Virus record (IMG/VR): IMGVR_UViG_3300045988_151853
Length of the DNA stretch: 27,146 bases
From: a virus
Taxonomy: Duplodnaviria; Heunggongvirae; Uroviricota; Caudoviricetes
Direction: 5' to 3' (one strand)
The position numbers and the translations under genes were made by a program. Below the pieces are notes generated by a model, which saw only the letters and a list, made by a program, of their open reading frames with translations, was not told the origin of the DNA and did no database searches. The first letter of the stretch is position 1. Each line of letters starts with the position of its first letter. Of this stretch, positions 8,353 through 25,725 are shown in pieces.

Positions 8353-8909
8353 AACTGACGCCTGTTATTGCTGCGCTGCGTGCCCGCTGCCCGTATTTTG
8401 AAAACCGGGTGGCAGGCGCGGCACAGTTCAAAAATCTGCCGGAGGTCGGAAAGCTGAGACTCCCGGCGGCGTATGTGGTACCGGGTGATGACTCTCCGGG
8501 AGAAAACAAAAGCCAGACCGACTACTGGCAGGAGCTGAAAGAGGGCTTCTCCGTGGTTGTCATACTGAGTAACGGGCGTGATGAGCGCGGTCAGTTTGCT
8601 TCGTATGATGTGGTGGACGATGTCCGGCAGATGCTCTTTAAGGCCCTGCTGGGCTGGAACCCGGAAGCGTGCGGTAACCCGATTACCTATGACGGTGGCA
8701 CGCTGCTGGATCTGAATCGTCATGAGCTGATTTATCAGTTCGATTTTTCGGTCATCAGCGAGCTGACCGAAGACGATACCCGCCAGCAGGATGACCTGAA
8801 CAGTCTGGATGAACTGCGAACGCTGGCGATTGATGTTGATTATCTCGATCCCGGTAACGGGCCTGACGGCGATATCGAACATCACACCGAAATAACCCTT
8901 CCTTCCTGA
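8349..8909 (+). CDS. Hypothetical tail protein (position of Mu gpK-like tail terminator/completion)
   Basis: 186-aa ORF directly upstream of the sheath gene cluster; function inferred from position only. Confidence 0.5.
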   Translation: MKLTPVIAALRARCPYFENRVAGAAQFKNLPEVGKLRLPAAYVVPGDDSPGENKSQTDYWQELKEGFSVVVILSNGRDERGQFASYDVVDDVRQMLFKALLGWNPEACGNPITYDGGTLLDLNRHELIYQFDFSVISELTEDDTRQQDDLNSLDELRTLAIDVDYLDPGNGPDGDIEHHTEITLPS

Positions 8910-11342: not shown

Positions 11343-13290
11343 ATTTGAGCTTAAGGCGTTGATCACCGGTGTCGACAGGCTTTCTCCCGCGCTGTCGAAA
11401 ATGCAAAAGAAAATCCGGGGATTTAAACGCCAGGCGGAAGAAGCGTCACAGGGTGGGCTGGCGCTTGGTGGCGGACTGGCAGCGGGTCTGACGCTTTCCC
11501 TGAAATCTTATGCCGATCAGGAAAACGCCGCCACCGGGCTGAAAGTCGCCATGATGGATGCGAACGGCGAGGTTGGAAAGAGCTTTCAGGACATCAATAA
11601 ACTGGCTATTGGCCTGGGTAACCAGCTACCCGGTACAACGGCTGATTTCCAGAACATGATGCAGATGCTGGTGCGTCAGGGGATCCCGGCAGAAAACATT
11701 CTTGGTGGTGTGGGTAAAGCGACAGCTTATCTTGCGGTACAACTGAAAAAAACACCGGAAGCGGCTGCTGAGTTTGCTGCAAAGATGCAGGATGCTACCG
11801 GAACGGCGTCAGAAGACATGATGGGGCTGTTCGACACTATCCAGAAGGCGTTTTATCTGGGCGTTGACGATACCAACATGTTGTCCTTCTTCACTAAAAC
11901 CAGTTCTGTTCTGAAGATGGTGAACAAGGACGGTCTTCAGGCTGCACAGAGCCTTGCCCCCATCAGCGTCATGATGGATCAGATGGGGATGAACGGGGAG
12001 TCGGCAGGTAATGCCCTGCGAAAAGTTATCCAGTCCGGATTAAGCGTTAAGAAAATCAGGGACGTCAATAAAGTCATGGCCCGCCAGAGACTCGGGGTAC
12101 AGCTCGATTTTACTGACGGCAAAGGAAGTTTTGGCGGTCTTGATAACATGTTCAGGCAACTGGCAAAGCTGCGAAAACTGACCGACGTTAAGCGAACAGG
12201 TGTACTTAAGGCAATATTTGGTGATGATGCCGAAACCCTTCAGGTGGTCAATGCACTAATCGATAAAGGAAAGGATGGCTACGATCAGATCCAGCAGAAG
12301 ATGAATAAACAGGCCAGCCTGAATAAACGTGTTCAGGCACAGCTTGGTACGCTGTCCAACCTGTGGGAGGCAATGACGGGGACCGCAACTAACGGCCTTG
12401 CGGCTATTGGCGGCGCATTTTCTGGTGACGCCAAAAATATCACGCAATGGCTGGGGGAGTTGGGGGAAAAATTCACGAAGTTTGCGGATGAAAATCCCCG
12501 GGTTATTCGCGGCGTCGTCGGGCTTGCTGCCGGTCTTGCGATTCTGAAACTGGGATTGATGGGCGTGGGCAGTGCCATCAGTATCGTCAGCAGGATCATG
12601 TCGATGACGCCGATTGGCATGATTGCGACGGCGATTGCCTTGGCTGCGGGATTAATTATCACTAACTGGGATGTTGTTGGACCTTATTTCAAGAAGCTCT
12701 GGGAAACCATTGGTCCTTATTTTGAGGCTGGCTGGGAACTTCTGAAGAAGGTTTTTGCCTGGTCGCCGCTGGGGATGGTAATCAATAACTGGGGACCGGT
12801 TGTTAAGTGGTTTCAGGATATGTGGGACAAGCTGAAGCCAATTATTGAGTGGTTTACCGACAGTTCCGGTGACACGGTCGATGCCATTAACTCGGCGCAG
12901 TGGGGCGCGGGTGCTTATGATGCTTATGGGACGGGAATACCGCCACGGGGATACACTCCTTATCCGGCGCAGTCAAACAACGCCTCCGGTGACACGGTCG
13001 ATGCCATTAACTCTGCGCAGTGGGGCGCGGGTGCTTATGATGCTTATGGGACGGGAATACCGGCGCGGGGATACACACCTTATCCGGCGGTAGATCCGGC
13101 TCAGTCAAACAACGCCTCCGATGCTACAGGCCCGAATCCCTTCATGATTAACAAAGCTTCTGCGCCAAAAGTTGACGGTGAGATCAAGGTCTCTTTTGTG
13201 AATTCGCCTCCGGGTATGCGGGTTATGGAAACGCGATCCAGCGGTTTTGATATAAATCACGATGTTGGCTATACGCATATTGGCAGATGA
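11335..13290 (+). CDS. Tail tape measure protein
   Basis: 651-aa ORF after the chaperone pair, with a coiled/helical N-terminal half, a hydrophobic segment, and a C-terminal tandem repeat. Confidence 0.9.
   Translation: MAEFELKALITGVDRLSPALSKMQKKIRGFKRQAEEASQGGLALGGGLAAGLTLSLKSYADQENAATGLKVAMMDANGEVGKSFQDINKLAIGLGNQLPGTTADFQNMMQMLVRQGIPAENILGGVGKATAYLAVQLKKTPEAAAEFAAKMQDATGTASEDMMGLFDTIQKAFYLGVDDTNMLSFFTKTSSVLKMVNKDGLQAAQSLAPISVMMDQMGMNGESAGNALRKVIQSGLSVKKIRDVNKVMARQRLGVQLDFTDGKGSFGGLDNMFRQLAKLRKLTDVKRTGVLKAIFGDDAETLQVVNALIDKGKDGYDQIQQKMNKQASLNKRVQAQLGTLSNLWEAMTGTATNGLAAIGGAFSGDAKNITQWLGELGEKFTKFADENPRVIRGVVGLAAGLAILKLGLMGVGSAISIVSRIMSMTPIGMIATAIALAAGLIITNWDVVGPYFKKLWETIGPYFEAGWELLKKVFAWSPLGMVINNWGPVVKWFQDMWDKLKPIIEWFTDSSGDTVDAINSAQWGAGAYDAYGTGIPPRGYTPYPAQSNNASGDTVDAINSAQWGAGAYDAYGTGIPARGYTPYPAVDPAQSNNASDATGPNPFMINKASAPKVDGEIKVSFVNSPPGMRVMETRSSGFDINHDVGYTHIGR
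12865..13113 (+). repeat. In-frame tandem duplication (about 120 bp, 2 copies) inside tape measure gene
   Basis: TCCGGTGACACGGTCGATGCCATTAAC... recurs at 12865 and 12985 with 4 mismatches over 120 bp. The second copy carries a short insertion (GGTAGATCCGGCT for GCG) before CAGTCAAACAACGCC. Both encode SGDTVDAINSAQWGAGAYDAYGTGIP(P/A)RGYTPYPA. Confidence 0.9.
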
Positions 13291-20912: not shown

Positions 20913-20966
20913 TGCAGAAATAGCGCGCAAATGGCATCGTTCCTGTTTTTGTCAGGAGGAGCTATC

Positions 20967-21523
20967 ATGCTTATTGGCTATGTTCGCGTATCAACAAATG
21001 ACCAGAACACCGATCTACAACGTAATGCGTTGAACTGTGCAGGATGTGAGCTGATTTTTGAAGACAAGATAAGCGGTACAAAGTCCGACAGACCAGGACT
21101 GAAAAAGCTGCTCAGGACATTATCGGCAGGTGACACGCTGGTGGTCTGGAAACTGGACCGACTGGGGCGCAGTATGCGGCATCTTGTCGTGCTGGTGGAA
21201 GAGTTGCGCGAACGTGGCGTTAATTTTCGCAGCCTGACGGATGCTATTGATACCAGCACACCAATGGGGCGCTTTTTCTTTCATGTGATGGGTGCCCTGG
21301 CTGAAATGGAGCGAGAGTTTATTGTCGAACGTACTAGGGCGGCTTTGCCGCAGCACGACAAGAAGGGAGGAACGGTGGGCGAAAGCCAAAGCTGACAGTA
21401 GAACAATGGGGGCAGGCTGGCAGGTTGATTGAATCGGGAATATATCAGCAGCAAGTCGCACTGATTTATGATCTGGGTATTTCAACGGTGTATAAAAAAT
21501 TCCCTGTAGCAAGTAAACCATAG
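20967..21523 (+). pseudogene. pin: Pin/Gin/Hin-family serine DNA invertase, interrupted by an apparent -1 frameshift near 21338-21342
   Basis: Frame 3 from ATG 20967 gives MLIGYVRVSTNDQNTDLQRNAL...FIVERTRA (resolvase/invertase catalytic domain with the catalytic Ser in YVRVST), then runs into unrelated residues and stops at 21395. Frame 2 (21338-21523) encodes the expected continuation GFAAARQEGRNGGRKPKLTVEQWGQAGRLIESG...ISTVYKKFP (HTH domain). AGGAGG RBS upstream of 20967. Confidence 0.75.
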
Positions 21524-21549: not shown

Positions 21550-22245
21550 TTATGCACTATTTTTAGGTCTTGTAACCCGAGGTGGGAGTTGTTTGGTTAT
21601 ATGTTCAAGTGATTTTTTGCCCAAGATAGTTCTTTGGACAAAACTTTCTATAGCTTCTAGCATTTGTTCGAACTCACTTTTATTCGGGCTCCAACTGCGA
21701 TGTGCGGCGGCGTTTCCTGCATCAATTACTGAAGATATAACGCATGCCTCAGTGTCGCCTATGACTCCATCTTGTTTTAATTTTTCAACTTTTTCACCAA
21801 GCGGCAAACCGGGGTGAATTTGTAACAGTTCAGCAGTTCGATCAAAAATCGTCCGTAAACCGATGGACGAAAGAATGAAATGGTCAGAAGTATATGAAGA
21901 ATACATTTCATTAAATATTTGAAAGAGCTGACGATCAACTGATTCAAGCTTGGATAACCATATCGGAGCTTGAAATGTTTCAGCGGCAGGATAGGTAGTG
22001 ATCATATCTATAGGCGTTTCTACAAATTCACCATCACGATATTCGTGGGTAGTATGCTCACTGAAGTGTTCGTTGTGGTGATAGAAGACAGTATCACAGC
22101 CATTGCATTGGAGTAGGTGATGGTAATGGTACCCATAAACTGGATATTGGGAATCCTCCCAGCTAGTGGTTAGCTTCCCATGCACAGTGCAGTTACGTAA
22201 CCCACCGCATGTAGGGCAAAGAGCCTTGAGTATTTCCTTTTTCAT
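21550..22245 (-). CDS. Zinc-ribbon protein with DUF4145-like C-terminal domain (candidate accessory/defence gene)
   Basis: 231-aa minus-strand ORF. N-terminus has CPTC...C and CNGC plus His-rich stretches (Zn-ribbon-like); C-terminus ...LGEKVEKLKQDGVIGDTEACVISSVIDAGNAAAHRSWSPNKSEFEQMLEAIESFVQ resembles the GNxxAH-containing DUF4145 helical domain as I recall it. Low GC; sits where e14 carries mcrA, next to pin. Confidence 0.5.
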   Translation of the reverse strand: MKKEILKALCPTCGGLRNCTVHGKLTTSWEDSQYPVYGYHYHHLLQCNGCDTVFYHHNEHFSEHTTHEYRDGEFVETPIDMITTYPAAETFQAPIWLSKLESVDRQLFQIFNEMYSSYTSDHFILSSIGLRTIFDRTAELLQIHPGLPLGEKVEKLKQDGVIGDTEACVISSVIDAGNAAAHRSWSPNKSEFEQMLEAIESFVQRTILGKKSLEHITKQLPPRVTRPKNSA

Positions 22246-22593
22246 AAAGTCTCTGATTCTATATGTAGGTTAAGACCACTATTAGCTATACGGACCTAAT
22301 AATCAATCGTGTGCAGATACAAAAAAGCCCGTATAGCGGGATTTCATGTCACTAAGGGCCGCGGCTACTTTGCGTATCTTTTTTGTCTTCTCACCGTCTG
22401 GCCGGTATTTTGCTGAGACTGCTTATTTCCAGTTTTTACTAGTGCTGTACTGGTACTGCCCAATCATGATTGGTGGGGGACGGAGTTGAAACCGCAGCCA
22501 CGTCGTATGCAAGAACGCGCTGCGGTTGGCTGGTGAACTTTCGATAGTGCGAGTATTGAATGATTTCCAGCCGTTACAGATTTTACGTGTTTA

Positions 22594-22842
22594 TTAGTGA
22601 ACAAACCACTCGTCAGCAGATTCCCAGGTATCTTTCAGAGTCTCCTGAACAAAAGTTTTTGCAGAATCCTTATCTGCGGTGCGTGTAACAGAAAGGCCAT
22701 CATTGCTGGTGGCTTTTACTAACACCTCAACATCGTCATAACGCTTACTGATGCGTCGGGTTAATTCTTCCTTTAACGCATCCACAGCACCGGTTGGCAT
22801 TTTAGTCATTTTTTCTTTGGCTATGCAGATTTCAATACGCAT
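22594..22842 (-). CDS. dinI: DinI-family protein (SOS-regulated; DinI/Tum-like)
   Basis: 82-aa product [31 protein letters not shown]...[11 protein letters not shown] aligns well with E. coli DinI (MRIEVTIAK...AIDALAGELSRRI...ETWESADDWFV) as I recall it; strong GGAGGGA RBS; tandem LexA boxes upstream. Confidence 0.85.
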
Positions 22843-22855
22843 AAAAGTCCCTCCA

Positions 22856-22907
22856 TACTGTGTTTGTATACAGTATTATTTTTAACTGTATGGATAAACA
22901 GTGTCAA
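22856..22907 (-). promoter_or_regulatory. SOS-regulated promoter: -35 TTGACA, 17-nt spacer, -10 TAAAAA, with two LexA boxes (22858-22873 and 22886-22901)
   Basis: Minus strand reads TTGACA-CTGTttatccatACAGt-TAAAAA...taCTGTatacaaacACAGta...GGAGGGActtttATG. Both boxes fit CTGT-N8-ACAG; the downstream one matches the 20-bp consensus ends TACTGT...ACAGTA. Confidence 0.75.
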
Positions 22908-24001
22908 GAGGTCTTATTTCTGCTCCTTTGGAGCTCTTCAAAACGATTATGTAAAGATTTCGGATACAGTTCGGTATATACCTGCCATAGCACGTTTAAT
23001 GAACGATGCCCTGTAACCTGGGCGACTTCCTCAATACTAAAACCAGCCTCAAATAAGCGACTTGCCCCTTCTCTACGCAAATCATGGTATCGCAGATCCT
23101 TAATACCTAATTTGCTTCTTACTCTCTGAAATCCCGCAGTAACAGAAGTGCTGTTATATGGAAAAATGAATTCCGATTTTTGGGGCTGTCGTTGGACGAT
23201 ATCCCAGGCTTCCCCAAGCAAGGCTACTTTCATGTGGTTGCCTTCCTTTTTGCGTGGATCTTTCCTGTCTCTTACGAGTATAGATTTTTGTTCCTGGTCG
23301 AGATCTTCCCATCGTAACCGGCATACTTCTCCGATTCGCATACAGGACCATACAGAAAATTTGAGGATATCAACGAACGGAATTTTTGAGCATTTATGAG
23401 TAGATCGTTGTTGAAGGCCTGCAATGAGCATGTCCAGTTCATCAGATGCTGGTCTACGATTACGACGGTTTGATTTACCAATCAAACCAAGTTTAAGTAG
23501 ATATGGGCGAGCGCTTTTCGCCGGGTTTGATGTGTAATTAATTCCGTATACAGGTTTGGCCGCATCCAGAACACTGCCAAGATAACTAACATCGTGGCTG
23601 ACTGTTGCTGGACCTGCACCAGCGTTGTTTCTTAGCCTGCAATGTTCAATTACGTCATTTTCTGTCAGTTCAGATAGTTTGATCGCGGAGATGTCACTAT
23701 CCATAAGCAGTTCCAGCACATATCTTTTAGTACGGCCTGCTTTACCTCCGGCATTTGGGTCATTTAAATATTTGTGTAGTAAGTCACGGACTGTAAGTCC
23801 GTCAACTGCATTTGATGATGGAATGCCATATAGATCTAATTCCATCACTTTCTGTGTGCCCCATGTTTTGGCATGAGCATGTTTAGGGAATGTTTTGCTT
23901 TCCCTGTAAGTGATAACACCTTTTTCTTTGATAATCACATTACAGCGATAGCGTGGTGTGCCATCGGATTTTAGTCGTTTCTCTATGTTATAGTACGCCA
24001 T
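22904..24001 (-). CDS. int: Tyrosine-type site-specific integrase
   Basis: 365-aa minus-strand ORF with an integrase catalytic region (...SCMRIGEVCRLRWEDLD..., ...LRYHDLRREGASRL..., ...VTGHRSLNVLWQVYTELY...) carrying R, H-x-x-R and Tyr motifs; GAGG RBS. Confidence 0.9.
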   Translation of the reverse strand: MAYYNIEKRLKSDGTPRYRCNVIIKEKGVITYRESKTFPKHAHAKTWGTQKVMELDLYGIPSSNAVDGLTVRDLLHKYLNDPNAGGKAGRTKRYVLELLMDSDISAIKLSELTENDVIEHCRLRNNAGAGPATVSHDVSYLGSVLDAAKPVYGINYTSNPAKSARPYLLKLGLIGKSNRRNRRPASDELDMLIAGLQQRSTHKCSKIPFVDILKFSVWSCMRIGEVCRLRWEDLDQEQKSILVRDRKDPRKKEGNHMKVALLGEAWDIVQRQPQKSEFIFPYNSTSVTAGFQRVRSKLGIKDLRYHDLRREGASRLFEAGFSIEEVAQVTGHRSLNVLWQVYTELYPKSLHNRFEELQRSRNKTS

Positions 24002-24020
24002 TACACGACCTCGTTATTTC

Positions 24021-24255
24021 GGGTTCCCATAAAACGTGGGAACCTGTGCGGGAACCTAACGCGAGAAAAATAGCCTGAAATGTTCAAAAATGCACGATAA
24101 TCATGAAACACAAAAAATTAATCAAACCAGCGTGATGCCTGAAAAAACTGGTGTTTACTGGAATTCTCGGTTTAGCATTGCTCCTATGCTCGATAGGATG
24201 TACCGTTTTTGAAAAACAAGTAGTTATACACTTTGTGGGAGCCTATTGGGAACCT
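24021..24255. repeat. Clustered 8-bp GGGAACCT repeats upstream of int (possible Int arm-type or operator sites)
   Basis: GGGTTCCC at 24021-24028, GGGAACCT at 24038-24045 and 24050-24057, GGGAGCCT at 24238-24245, GGGAACCT at 24248-24255: two clusters about 200 bp apart in an AT-rich intergenic region. Confidence 0.4.
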
Positions 24256-24334
24256 GTTATTCTTAGAAAGCATCATTTGCTCATCACTTCAATTGACCTA
24301 GCGTAGGTGAAGACTTTAAGATTGCAGGAGGCGG

Positions 24335-24916
24335 ATGCGGTTGCATTTGCCAGAGCTTGACGATGTTGTTTGGATGAAGGGTGTATTGATGCTAAATGTA
24401 AGGTTTGATTCAGAAAAGGCTTTAGAGGCCATTCTGTACGTCGCCTCTAAAGCACCGATCCCAGATATCTATCATGTCGGAAAAATTCTTTATTATGCTG
24501 ACAGGTTTCACCTTGAAAGTTTTGGACGCCTCATAACGGGCGATCACTATAACGCTATGAAGGATGGGCCTGTAGCAAGCAACACATACGATATTATAAA
24601 AATTGCTCGTGGAGATGGACGTTACATTCCTAATGGTTGTGATGTCGATTCTGTGCGAAAAGCATTTTCTGTATCAGGTATGATGATTGTGCCGAGCCGT
24701 GAAGCTGATGAAGACTTTTTTAGTGACTCAGATTTAGAGTGTATTGATAAGTCTATCGCGATGCTTGGAAACATGTCCTTTGAAGCTATCAGAACCATGA
24801 GCCATGACGCGGCATGGGAACAGGCAGATCACAATGGTGAGATGTCTTTGGAATCGATAGTTGCACAGCTAAAAAATAGCAAATTAATACTGGATTATCT
24901 GAAGAACGGATATTGA
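24335..24916 (+). CDS. Panacea-domain (DUF4065, SocA/GepA-like) protein, candidate antitoxin
   Basis: 193-aa product with ...EAILYVASKAPIPDIYHVGKILYYADRFHLESFGRLITGDHYNAMKDGPVASNTY... and ...SFEAIRTMSHDAAWEQA..., matching the Panacea/DUF4065 pattern (KLxYYAD ... GPV ... THxxxxW) as I recall it. AGGAGG RBS; the start could instead be ATG 24374 or 24389. Confidence 0.65.
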   Translation: MRLHLPELDDVVWMKGVLMLNVRFDSEKALEAILYVASKAPIPDIYHVGKILYYADRFHLESFGRLITGDHYNAMKDGPVASNTYDIIKIARGDGRYIPNGCDVDSVRKAFSVSGMMIVPSREADEDFFSDSDLECIDKSIAMLGNMSFEAIRTMSHDAAWEQADHNGEMSLESIVAQLKNSKLILDYLKNGY

Positions 24917-24921
24917 TACTT

Positions 24922-25383
24922 ATGCTGGGTGATTGTTTCCCTCCTGATTTTAAGGCTAATTTTAGTCGTGAAAGAGGTATATCACCCGGTGATGTATTGT
25001 ATCTTCATTGTGATTTTACGACCCCACCTAAAGTAAAATATATGGTGGTTGTTTGCTGTGAACCTCTTTTAGTTCTTCTAATAAATTCAGATATAAATGA
25101 ATTTATTAAGAGAAACAATGATCTTATGGCTTGTCAGGTCGAAATTAATAGAGAGGACCATGATTTTCTTAAATGGGACTCATTTGTTAATTGCATTGAG
25201 GCTCATGCTGCTTTCGATCTTGAAATTATTAAAGAGAAAATAGCCATCCAATATGGCGACGTGCTAAAAGGTCGCATTACAGATCATTGTATGAGACAAG
25301 TTCGATGTGCAGTTGAGATATCTAAAATCATGGTTAAACGGCATAAAAAACTGATACTCGCTGCTCTTCAACATTATGAATAA
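24922..25383 (+). CDS. Hypothetical protein overlapping or abutting the Panacea-domain gene (candidate toxin/effector partner)
   Basis: 153-aa ORF from ATG 24922 (the track lists TTG 24913, overlapping the upstream stop by 4 nt); AT-rich; I recognise no family; followed by a bidirectional terminator. Confidence 0.45.
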   Translation: MLGDCFPPDFKANFSRERGISPGDVLYLHCDFTTPPKVKYMVVVCCEPLLVLLINSDINEFIKRNNDLMACQVEINREDHDFLKWDSFVNCIEAHAAFDLEIIKEKIAIQYGDVLKGRITDHCMRQVRCAVEISKIMVKRHKKLILAALQHYE

Positions 25384-25416: not shown

Positions 25417-25689
25417 TTAAATGAGCCTTTGTTTATGGGTTCTGACCCTTTCCCACTCAGCACGCCCTTCTTCTCGCCTTTTGTCTATGTATTCCGCAAG
25501 ATCCTGAATATTGATGCAACGTTTTGCTTTTTGTGATGTGCCGATGCGATATGTTGGAACGGGCAACTTACAAGCGTTTGCTTTTGCTTCTGCCGTGGCT
25601 GGACTCATGCCAAAGTACTTTTGGCTAACTGCTGAGAGTTCAATGTTAGGGGTATTGAATTCAGCCATCAGTAAAAACAAGGTGTTCAT
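25417..25689 (-). CDS. PrtN-family / excisionase-like DNA-binding protein
   Basis: Product MNTLFLLMAEFNTPNIELSAVSQKYFGMSP...LPVPTYRIGTSQKAKRCINIQDLAEYIDKRREEG resembles the pyocin activator PrtN family (MNTVFLLMAQY...) found next to int in lambdoid prophages. ATG 25689 with GGAG 6 nt upstream is preferred over the listed GTG 25716. Confidence 0.6.
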   Translation of the reverse strand: MNTLFLLMAEFNTPNIELSAVSQKYFGMSPATAEAKANACKLPVPTYRIGTSQKAKRCINIQDLAEYIDKRREEGRAEWERVRTHKQRLI

Positions 25690-25725
25690 AATTTTCTCCA
25701 TCAAAACCGGCTGCACCCGGGAAAA

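Follow-up and report, generated by a model that had tools for sequence, protein, structure and literature searches.

The locus described here lies in a stretch of 27,146 nucleotides from a tailed phage (IMG/VR record IMGVR_UViG_3300045988_151853), hereafter called the window. The tail genes of this phage are Mu-like, and as a whole it is similar to phage SKA5. Read along the minus strand, the locus begins with a tyrosine integrase gene (int), directly followed by a small gene for a DinI-like protein, by a conserved 3' segment and, further on, by an intrinsic terminator. A promoter with two predicted LexA operators precedes the small gene. The coordinates of these elements are given in Table 1.

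Table 1. Features of the int-dinI region, listed in the order in which the minus strand is read (window coordinates)
Feature	Position	Strand	Description
Phage-borne substitute 5' end of dusA (...RFSIAPMLD)	24090..24212	+	ORF translation; attP crossover at ~24190-24195; chromosomal homology stops at 24190-24193
Tyrosine integrase, dusA-targeting type	22904..24001	-	Phage_integrase domain; directly upstream of cassette
-35 hexamer TTGACA of dinI-like promoter	22902..22907	-	Promoter scan; contains int stop TGA; left cassette edge
Distal LexA operator (predicted)	22884..22903, core CTGT-N8-ACAG 22886-22901	-	20-mer CACTGTTTATCCATACAGTT on gene strand
-10 region	22878..22884	-	TAAAAA (17-nt spacer) or AAAAAT (18-nt spacer)
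Proximal LexA operator (predicted)	22856..22875, core 22858-22873	-	20-mer TACTGTATACAAACACAGTA on gene strand
Ribosome-binding site GGAGG	22850..22854	-	7 nt 5' of ATG at 22842
DinI-like protein gene, 82 aa	22594..22842, stop included	-	Pfam PF06183, PDB 1GHH, PHROG 189
Conserved 3' untranslated part of cassette	22488..22593	-	Two hairpins; right edge of the mobile unit
Canonical intrinsic terminator	22320..22345	-	CCCGCUAUACGGG then CUUUUUUG; read from sequence, stem listed by scan

A preliminary description of this DNA, made from its letters alone, had called the small gene dinI-like, and matches in Pfam, PDB and PHROG agree on this assignment. The Pfam DinI profile PF06183 is recognized with E=1e-19 and 71 bits for a cut-off of 24.2, residues 16-80 of the protein covering profile positions 1-63 of 63. 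The structure of E. coli DinI (1GHH) is matched end to end, residues 1-81 against 1-79 (E=4e-13), and PHROG 189, 'RecA filament binding protein DinI', is matched at positions 71-149 of 151 only. On the NCBIfam DinI equivalog NF007893 the protein obtains 72.8 bits against a cut-off of 111, and this sub-threshold score places it in a paralogous DinI-like subfamily rather than with the chromosomal DinI gene; RefSeq names the same gene 'DinI-like family protein'. It shares with chromosomal E. coli DinI the fold family, the length class and the C-terminal helix motif, and W73, E74, A76, D77, W79 and F80 are invariant in an alignment that includes the latter. Unlike DinI, however, it has two extra residues inserted at the KEK motif (Glu10-Lys11), and its central region is different. 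Given an identity to DinI of 49%, together with the low equivalog score, its effect on RecA could differ in sign or in target.

The pattern CTGT-N8-ACAG occurs exactly twice in the whole window, at 22858-22873 (CTGTGTTTGTATACAG) and at 22886-22901 (CTGTATGGATAAACAG). Shuffling of the window yields an expectation of 0.34 such palindromes per window, and two or more arose anywhere in only 3 of 100 shuffles; since the two boxes are moreover 28 bp apart, centre to centre, their adjacency makes a chance origin far less likely still. On the gene strand, the order of elements is ...AGACCTC TTGACA CTGTTTATCCATACAGT TAAAAA TAATA CTGTATACAAACACAG TATGGAGGGACTTTT ATG. The distal box directly abuts the -35 hexamer, which is perfect, and takes up 16 of the 17 or 18 bases that separate it from the -10, while the proximal box starts 4-5 nt past the -10 and spans the predicted +1 near 22871. 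This arrangement on the minus strand, with two boxes overlapping a TTGACA promoter, one in the spacer and the other over the predicted start, is the one initially proposed. The accompanying spacer of 17 nt is less certain: at this distance stands TAAAAA (22884-22879), in agreement with the 'promoter' annotation in the GenBank record of phage mEp460, whereas the promoter scan favours an 18-nt spacer with AAAAAT (22883-22878; 10 of 12 matches). The -10 is imperfect whichever spacer is used.

The strength of the boxes was estimated with a heterology index of the Berg-von Hippel type, whose matrix was derived from 18 E. coli K-12 LexA boxes (PMC3009722, Table 4). On this scale, which hinges on our own matrix and is not directly comparable with published Lewis indices, the value is 2.82 for the proximal box and 5.77 for the distal one, compared with 0.27 to 9.29 for the 18 K-12 sites themselves. 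The proximal box thus belongs to the class of the strongest K-12 boxes and the distal box scores within the span of the recA, lexA and sulA boxes, so that by score the two are as good as umuDC-class and recA/lexA-class sites. They are also the two best among 27,127 window positions, and are identical to the 20-mer consensus of the gammaproteobacterial LexA operator (TACTGTATATATATACAGTA) at 17/20 and 15/20 positions. The third-best LexA-like site of the window (TGCTGGACATTACTACAGCA, 396-415, score 9.95) falls within an Rz-like spanin ORF (328-720); in view of this coding context and of its score, we discarded it as probably due to chance.

Conservation of the boxes was followed at two evolutionary depths. 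A first scan of IMG/VR returned 58 loci from close relatives, and in their 21 distinct upstream variants CTGT and ACAG are invariant (21/21); as these relatives are 99-100% identical only, the figure is informative on substitutions and not on deep conservation. Changes in the same loci affect the -35 hexamer, the box centres, the flanks, the spacers, the -10 region and the ribosome-binding site. A second upstream context also occurs among these relatives, in which homology starts at the -35 hexamer. Deeper diversity was obtained from a profile scan of genome contigs, with one genome per species, which yielded 80 DinI-family loci in Enterobacterales. A CTG-N10-CAG box is present at most 130 nt from the start in 73 of these 80 genes, usually 33-43 nt upstream, and most DinI-family genes examined have it 33-40 nt 5' of the ATG. 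The other seven loci are a truncated copy and six Yersinia loci with a called start other than ATG.

Members of the 82-aa subfamily, with protein identities of 56-98%, come from E. coli, Shigella, Pantoea, Trabulsiella, Erwinia and Mixta. Most of them display two boxes, ~60 and ~34 nt 5' of the ATG, and the distal box is found in most of these genera. Alignment of 20 upstream regions delineates the elements that are kept: TTGACA-CTGT..CAG, an A/T-rich -10, CTGTATA..CAGT, the ribosome-binding site and the ATG. The place of the -10 retains an A/T-rich TAAA(A/T)(A/T) and that of the ribosome-binding site a purine-rich block. Upstream of TTGACA, these 20 regions present no conservation, and the sequence found there is unrelated between genera. 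Within the boxes, the LexA-critical CTG and CAG triplets are the positions kept across genera, and the centre varies. The spacing of the two boxes ranges from 24 to 29 bp across genera, and cooperative binding of LexA is therefore not implied; each box seems to be set relative to the promoter elements rather than phased for cooperativity.

Both boxes thus combine the features of a LexA operator, that is, the core match, a score in the range of known sites, overlap with the promoter or start and conservation amid diverged flanks. Tight LexA repression with induction upon DNA damage, already put forward in the preliminary description, is predicted by the strong operator scores, by a placement that would exclude RNA polymerase, and by the recurrence of the two-box layout across genera. 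A literature search retrieved no paper on this E. coli cassette or its operators.

The gene does lie directly downstream of int, as initially stated, the int ORF ending inside the -35 hexamer, with its stop codon TGA being part of TTGACA. The int-dinI module is 98% identical to phages mEp460 and SKA5, and int adjoins dusA in E. coli chromosomes. No terminator is found in the sequence between the two genes, so that transcription of int can continue into the dinI-like gene and some LexA-independent expression is possible. The position after int is a property of the mEp460/SKA5-type dusA integrase module and is incidental to the cassette. In a three-way alignment, homology with chromosomal prophages ends at ~24190-24195, beyond which the prophages pass into host dusA and the window, like mEp460, into further phage DNA. 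The intact attP in region 24001-24335 and this break in homology indicate that the window derives from a free or circular phage genome and not from an integrated prophage. We also considered an attP located downstream of the dinI-like gene, as in lambda; it is ruled out by the dusA substitute ORF and by the homology break upstream of int, at ~24190.

On the other side of the gene, the 3' segment contains two hairpins, GGCUGG...CCAGCC and AACCGCAGCG...GCUGCGGUU, the second being followed by UCAACU, and is a probable weak end of the transcript. Its fold does not differ significantly from that of shuffled sequences when taken alone (z = -1.8), and we therefore claim no structured RNA despite the two hairpins. 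Homology with Stx phages and other phages stops near 22488, and the next 140 nt give no structure signal apart from the terminator. The latter (22340-22320), which is bidirectional in form, is located outside the cassette, between it and a DUF4145 gene, and would halt read-through before this gene. Searches with Rfam, at gathering thresholds, and ARAGORN detected no RNA gene anywhere in the window; the region after the dinI-like gene is thus neither a known sRNA nor a tRNA-derived att site. From 22300 to 22600, none of the three minus-strand frames holds a credible ORF, these frames being closed or having only an implausible 46-aa ORF with a TTG start, and no downstream ORF is conserved across homologous loci. 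Four loci in Erwinia/Mixta have a 59-aa HicA-like toxin ORF ~100 nt after the two-box dinI-like gene and on the same strand, which suggests a different downstream partner in this lineage.

Homology to other phages extends from ~22488 to 22908, or from ~105 nt beyond the stop codon up to the -35 hexamer, and outside these two limits the neighbours are highly varied. The unit of ~420 bp (22488-22908) is a mobile cassette, a 'moron' spread by horizontal transfer. Phage records that contain it number 149, and many of them are from Stx1 and Stx2 phages; the cdtI phage, CP-1639, mEp460 and lambdoid phages are also represented. Among 5426 complete E. coli genomes, at least 1409 carry it at a coverage of 80% or more, with up to 8 matching places in a single genome. 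In other prophages the cassette is the last gene, after remnants of tail-fibre-assembly genes, and lies beside attR at ssrA and yecD; cassettes are also found at prophage ends beside dusA, and a remnant is seen at the bio/ybhB site. The accessory region between the tail fibres and att/int is a typical moron position. The 3' end of the cassette, over ~105-115 nt (window 22488-22603), also occurs alone, without a dinI-like gene and unannotated, in many E. coli chromosomes, such as that of strain Ecol_517, where it adjoins ybhB/bio. PGAP predicts a 35-aa 'capsid protein' ORF across this solitary 3' end in some genomes; the ORF looks spurious.

The anatomy of the unit, the family of its product, its conservation and its mobility can be read directly from the data above, and we consider it likely that they describe a self-contained, SOS-gated cassette composed of a strong sigma-70 promoter, two operators for host LexA, a ribosome-binding site, a DinI-like modulator of RecA and a short, structured 3' end. 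From there we infer LexA binding, SOS inducibility, RecA binding and a physiological effect, according to the following scheme. In an undamaged lysogen, LexA dimers would occupy both operators: one would abut the -35 and fill the spacer, the other would cover the start, and RNA polymerase would be excluded, leaving the gene silent. Following DNA damage, activated RecA would promote LexA self-cleavage, and the emptied operators would allow synthesis of a short monocistronic mRNA. As the proximal operator is near consensus and two sites are involved, repression should be tight, and derepression should come late or require strong SOS signalling. Like chromosomal DinI, the protein would then contact RecA filaments by way of its acidic C-terminal helix, which is conserved (...TWESADEWF), and modulate the RecA co-protease activity, thereby feeding back on SOS. 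Where a phage has a self-cleaving CI, the protein would act on the rate of repressor cleavage as well. Of the roles suggested at the outset, that of tempering RecA activity is the one best supported by homology.

Several phage genes of the DinI family offer points of comparison. [quoted passage not shown] Its upstream region comprises TTGACA, 17 nt, ATAAAT and TACTGTATATGCATACAGTA, with a near-consensus LexA box and a ribosome-binding site, and the record annotates the -35, the -10 and the LexA site. The phiKO2 gene is described as LexA-regulated in the passage of PMC7556043 that cites Casjens et al. 2004, and a similar predicted LexA site has been reported in a Serratia phage (PMC7556043). 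However, the protein is only 25% identical to that of the window and belongs to a different subfamily; furthermore, gp22 has a single annotated box, forms a divergent pair with a UmuD-like gene and has no adjoining integrase. The phiKO2 spacer (11982-12029) ends in ...ATACAGT, which resembles the degenerate right half of a distal box and is placed like the second operator of the window.

[quoted passage not shown] They differ from the window gene in several respects: identity is ~42% for the Gifsy-1 homologue, the subfamily is that of ~75-aa proteins, there is a single box, and the gene is placed after replication genes. In addition, the Gifsy dinI homologue heads an operon formed by dinI, an antirepressor gene and irsA, whereas the window has no antirepressor gene. 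Chromosomal E. coli dinI likewise has a LexA box, ~39 nt 5' of its ATG, but this is a single operator of moderate strength (ACCTGTATAAATAACCAGTA). A preprint on radioresistance in EDL933 concerns chromosomal dinI only. Compared with the known phage dinI genes, that of the window is set apart by an extra conserved operator in the promoter spacer.

The same regulation could serve another purpose than the one proposed above. As a factor of lysogenic conversion acting on host fitness, the cassette would add to the DinI dosage of the cell without serving the phage's own cycle, and would dampen SOS, mutagenesis or the induction of co-resident prophages under genotoxic stress. The multiplicity of matching places per E. 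coli genome and the position between tail fibres and att/int, typical of morons, speak for this reading. A prophage DinI-like gene is also statistically associated with later quinolone-resistance mutations in E. coli (PMC10575684), and in an evolved strain sulA, dinI, umuD and recN changed along with c0943, a dinI-like locus (PMC2817434); both genes may differ from that of the cassette. All this support is correlative, and the reading is compatible with the SOS-gated cassette rather than exclusive of it; we regard a mainly host-directed role as possible, although doubtful.

A more speculative proposal, which we hold to be rather improbable, is that temperate phages spread the cassette as a dosage-tunable damper of the SOS response, in which the unusually tight control by two operators delays expression until a strong SOS response is well advanced, and feedback on RecA limits the cleavage of CI and/or UmuD. 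In genomes with up to 8 copies, such a damper would set the threshold and timing of induction for the carrier and for co-resident prophages, including Stx phages, and would bear on survival and on the supply of mutations during quinolone exposure.

The preliminary description had further suggested that the gene may couple the SOS state of the host to prophage induction in the manner of Tum, the antirepressor of phage 186. In such a switch, similar to those of 186 or Gifsy, the product or a co-transcribed partner would be an antirepressor that inactivates the phage repressor. There are true similarities: Tum is expressed from the LexA-repressed p95 promoter of the SOS operon of 186, its C-terminal half is DinI-like (PMC3121763), and truncated, DinI-like products of Tum bear the annotation 'modulates SOS induction' in the 186 record. 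That Tum carries a DinI-like domain is confirmed by our alignment, in which its residues 70-141 correspond to residues 2-74 of the window protein, with 30% identity over 73 residues. Yet Tum is a protein of 146 aa, and the alignment covers this part alone: the N-terminal half (~70 residues), to which antirepressor activity is attributed in PSP3 according to a study cited in a passage of PMC3121763, is absent from the window protein. Tum also differs by a single LexA box that lies over the -10, by the presence of orf97 after it and by its location, as a gene of P2-like phages, at the right genome end.

Other observations go against a switch of this type. The dinI-like gene is followed by no antirepressor ORF, here or in homologous loci. 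SKA5, a relative that shares the int-dinI module, has a Peptidase_S24 self-cleavage domain in its CI, so that no antirepressor is needed in that phage; this S24-type CI argues against an uncleaved repressor of the Gifsy type, the window's own immunity region lying outside the window. Non-polar deletions of the Gifsy dinI homologues caused no significant change in induction (Lemire et al., PMC3121763), and the presence of the cassette in many phages with differing immunity regions is hard to square with a repressor-specific antirepressor. A Tum-like coupling is therefore very unlikely, and this part of the initial proposal was abandoned, although modulation of induction through RecA is possible.

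The last alternative, in which the palindromes would be chance A/T-rich repeats or sites for another factor, and the gene constitutive or linked to int, could invoke the direct reading of int into the gene and a LexA DNA-binding-domain-only protein of related phages that might use the same sites, but it is scarcely credible in view of box scores equal to those of verified strong LexA boxes, of the retention across genera of exactly the LexA-critical CTG/CAG with a variable centre, and of a position that is the same as that of the annotated LexA sites in phiKO2 and 186. The LexA-domain-only protein is encoded in phage SKA5 at 8484-8810; it has 108 aa and consists of the LexA DNA-binding domain (PF01726) alone, the cleavage domain being absent, and the corresponding region is outside the window. 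A protein of this type could in principle occupy LexA boxes, those of the cassette included, beyond the reach of RecA relief, and, as an extension of the damper proposal, such proteins might hold the same operators after cleavage of host LexA.

LexA-regulated dinI homologues of phages are already established in Gifsy, phiKO2 and 186, and the regulatory logic seen here is textbook SOS control, with no new principle. Novelty is confined to details, namely the conserved tandem-operator design, the boundaries of the cassette and its very wide distribution, and the value of the analysis is that of a refined annotation. Should the prediction be right, roughly one complete E. coli genome in four, many lysogens of Shiga-toxin phages among them, carries at least one extra, tightly LexA-gated DinI-like gene. 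Such additional genes could change SOS dynamics, the induction of prophages and of Stx, and mutagenesis in cells stressed by antibiotics, an effect at which the published association of a prophage DinI-like gene with quinolone resistance (PMC10575684) hints.

The surroundings of the cassette contain further elements of interest. A DNA invertase of the Pin/Gin type with a Resolvase domain (20931-21523) adjoins an invertible tail-fibre segment. Compared with the intact 185-aa copy of E. coli AVS0790, it has a 1-nt deletion near 21343 (GGGCGGGC to GGGCGGC) that splits it into ORFs of 154 and 32 aa, indicating either a pseudogene or a sequencing error. The DUF4145 protein (21550-22245, minus strand; PHROG 1305, 'DNA binding protein') has an N-terminal Cys-rich motif, and its gene is cargo between the invertase and the dinI cassette, absent from SKA5 and mEp460 and present in several E. 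coli dusA prophages. On the plus strand, a two-gene unit (24335-25383) is located between attP and an excisionase-like gene of the PrtN family (25417-25716, minus strand). It encodes a SocA/Panacea-domain protein of 193 aa and, with a 4-nt overlap, a 156-aa ORF that matches neither Pfam nor PHROG, and is possibly a toxin-antitoxin or defence pair; at the same place, mEp460 carries different genes.
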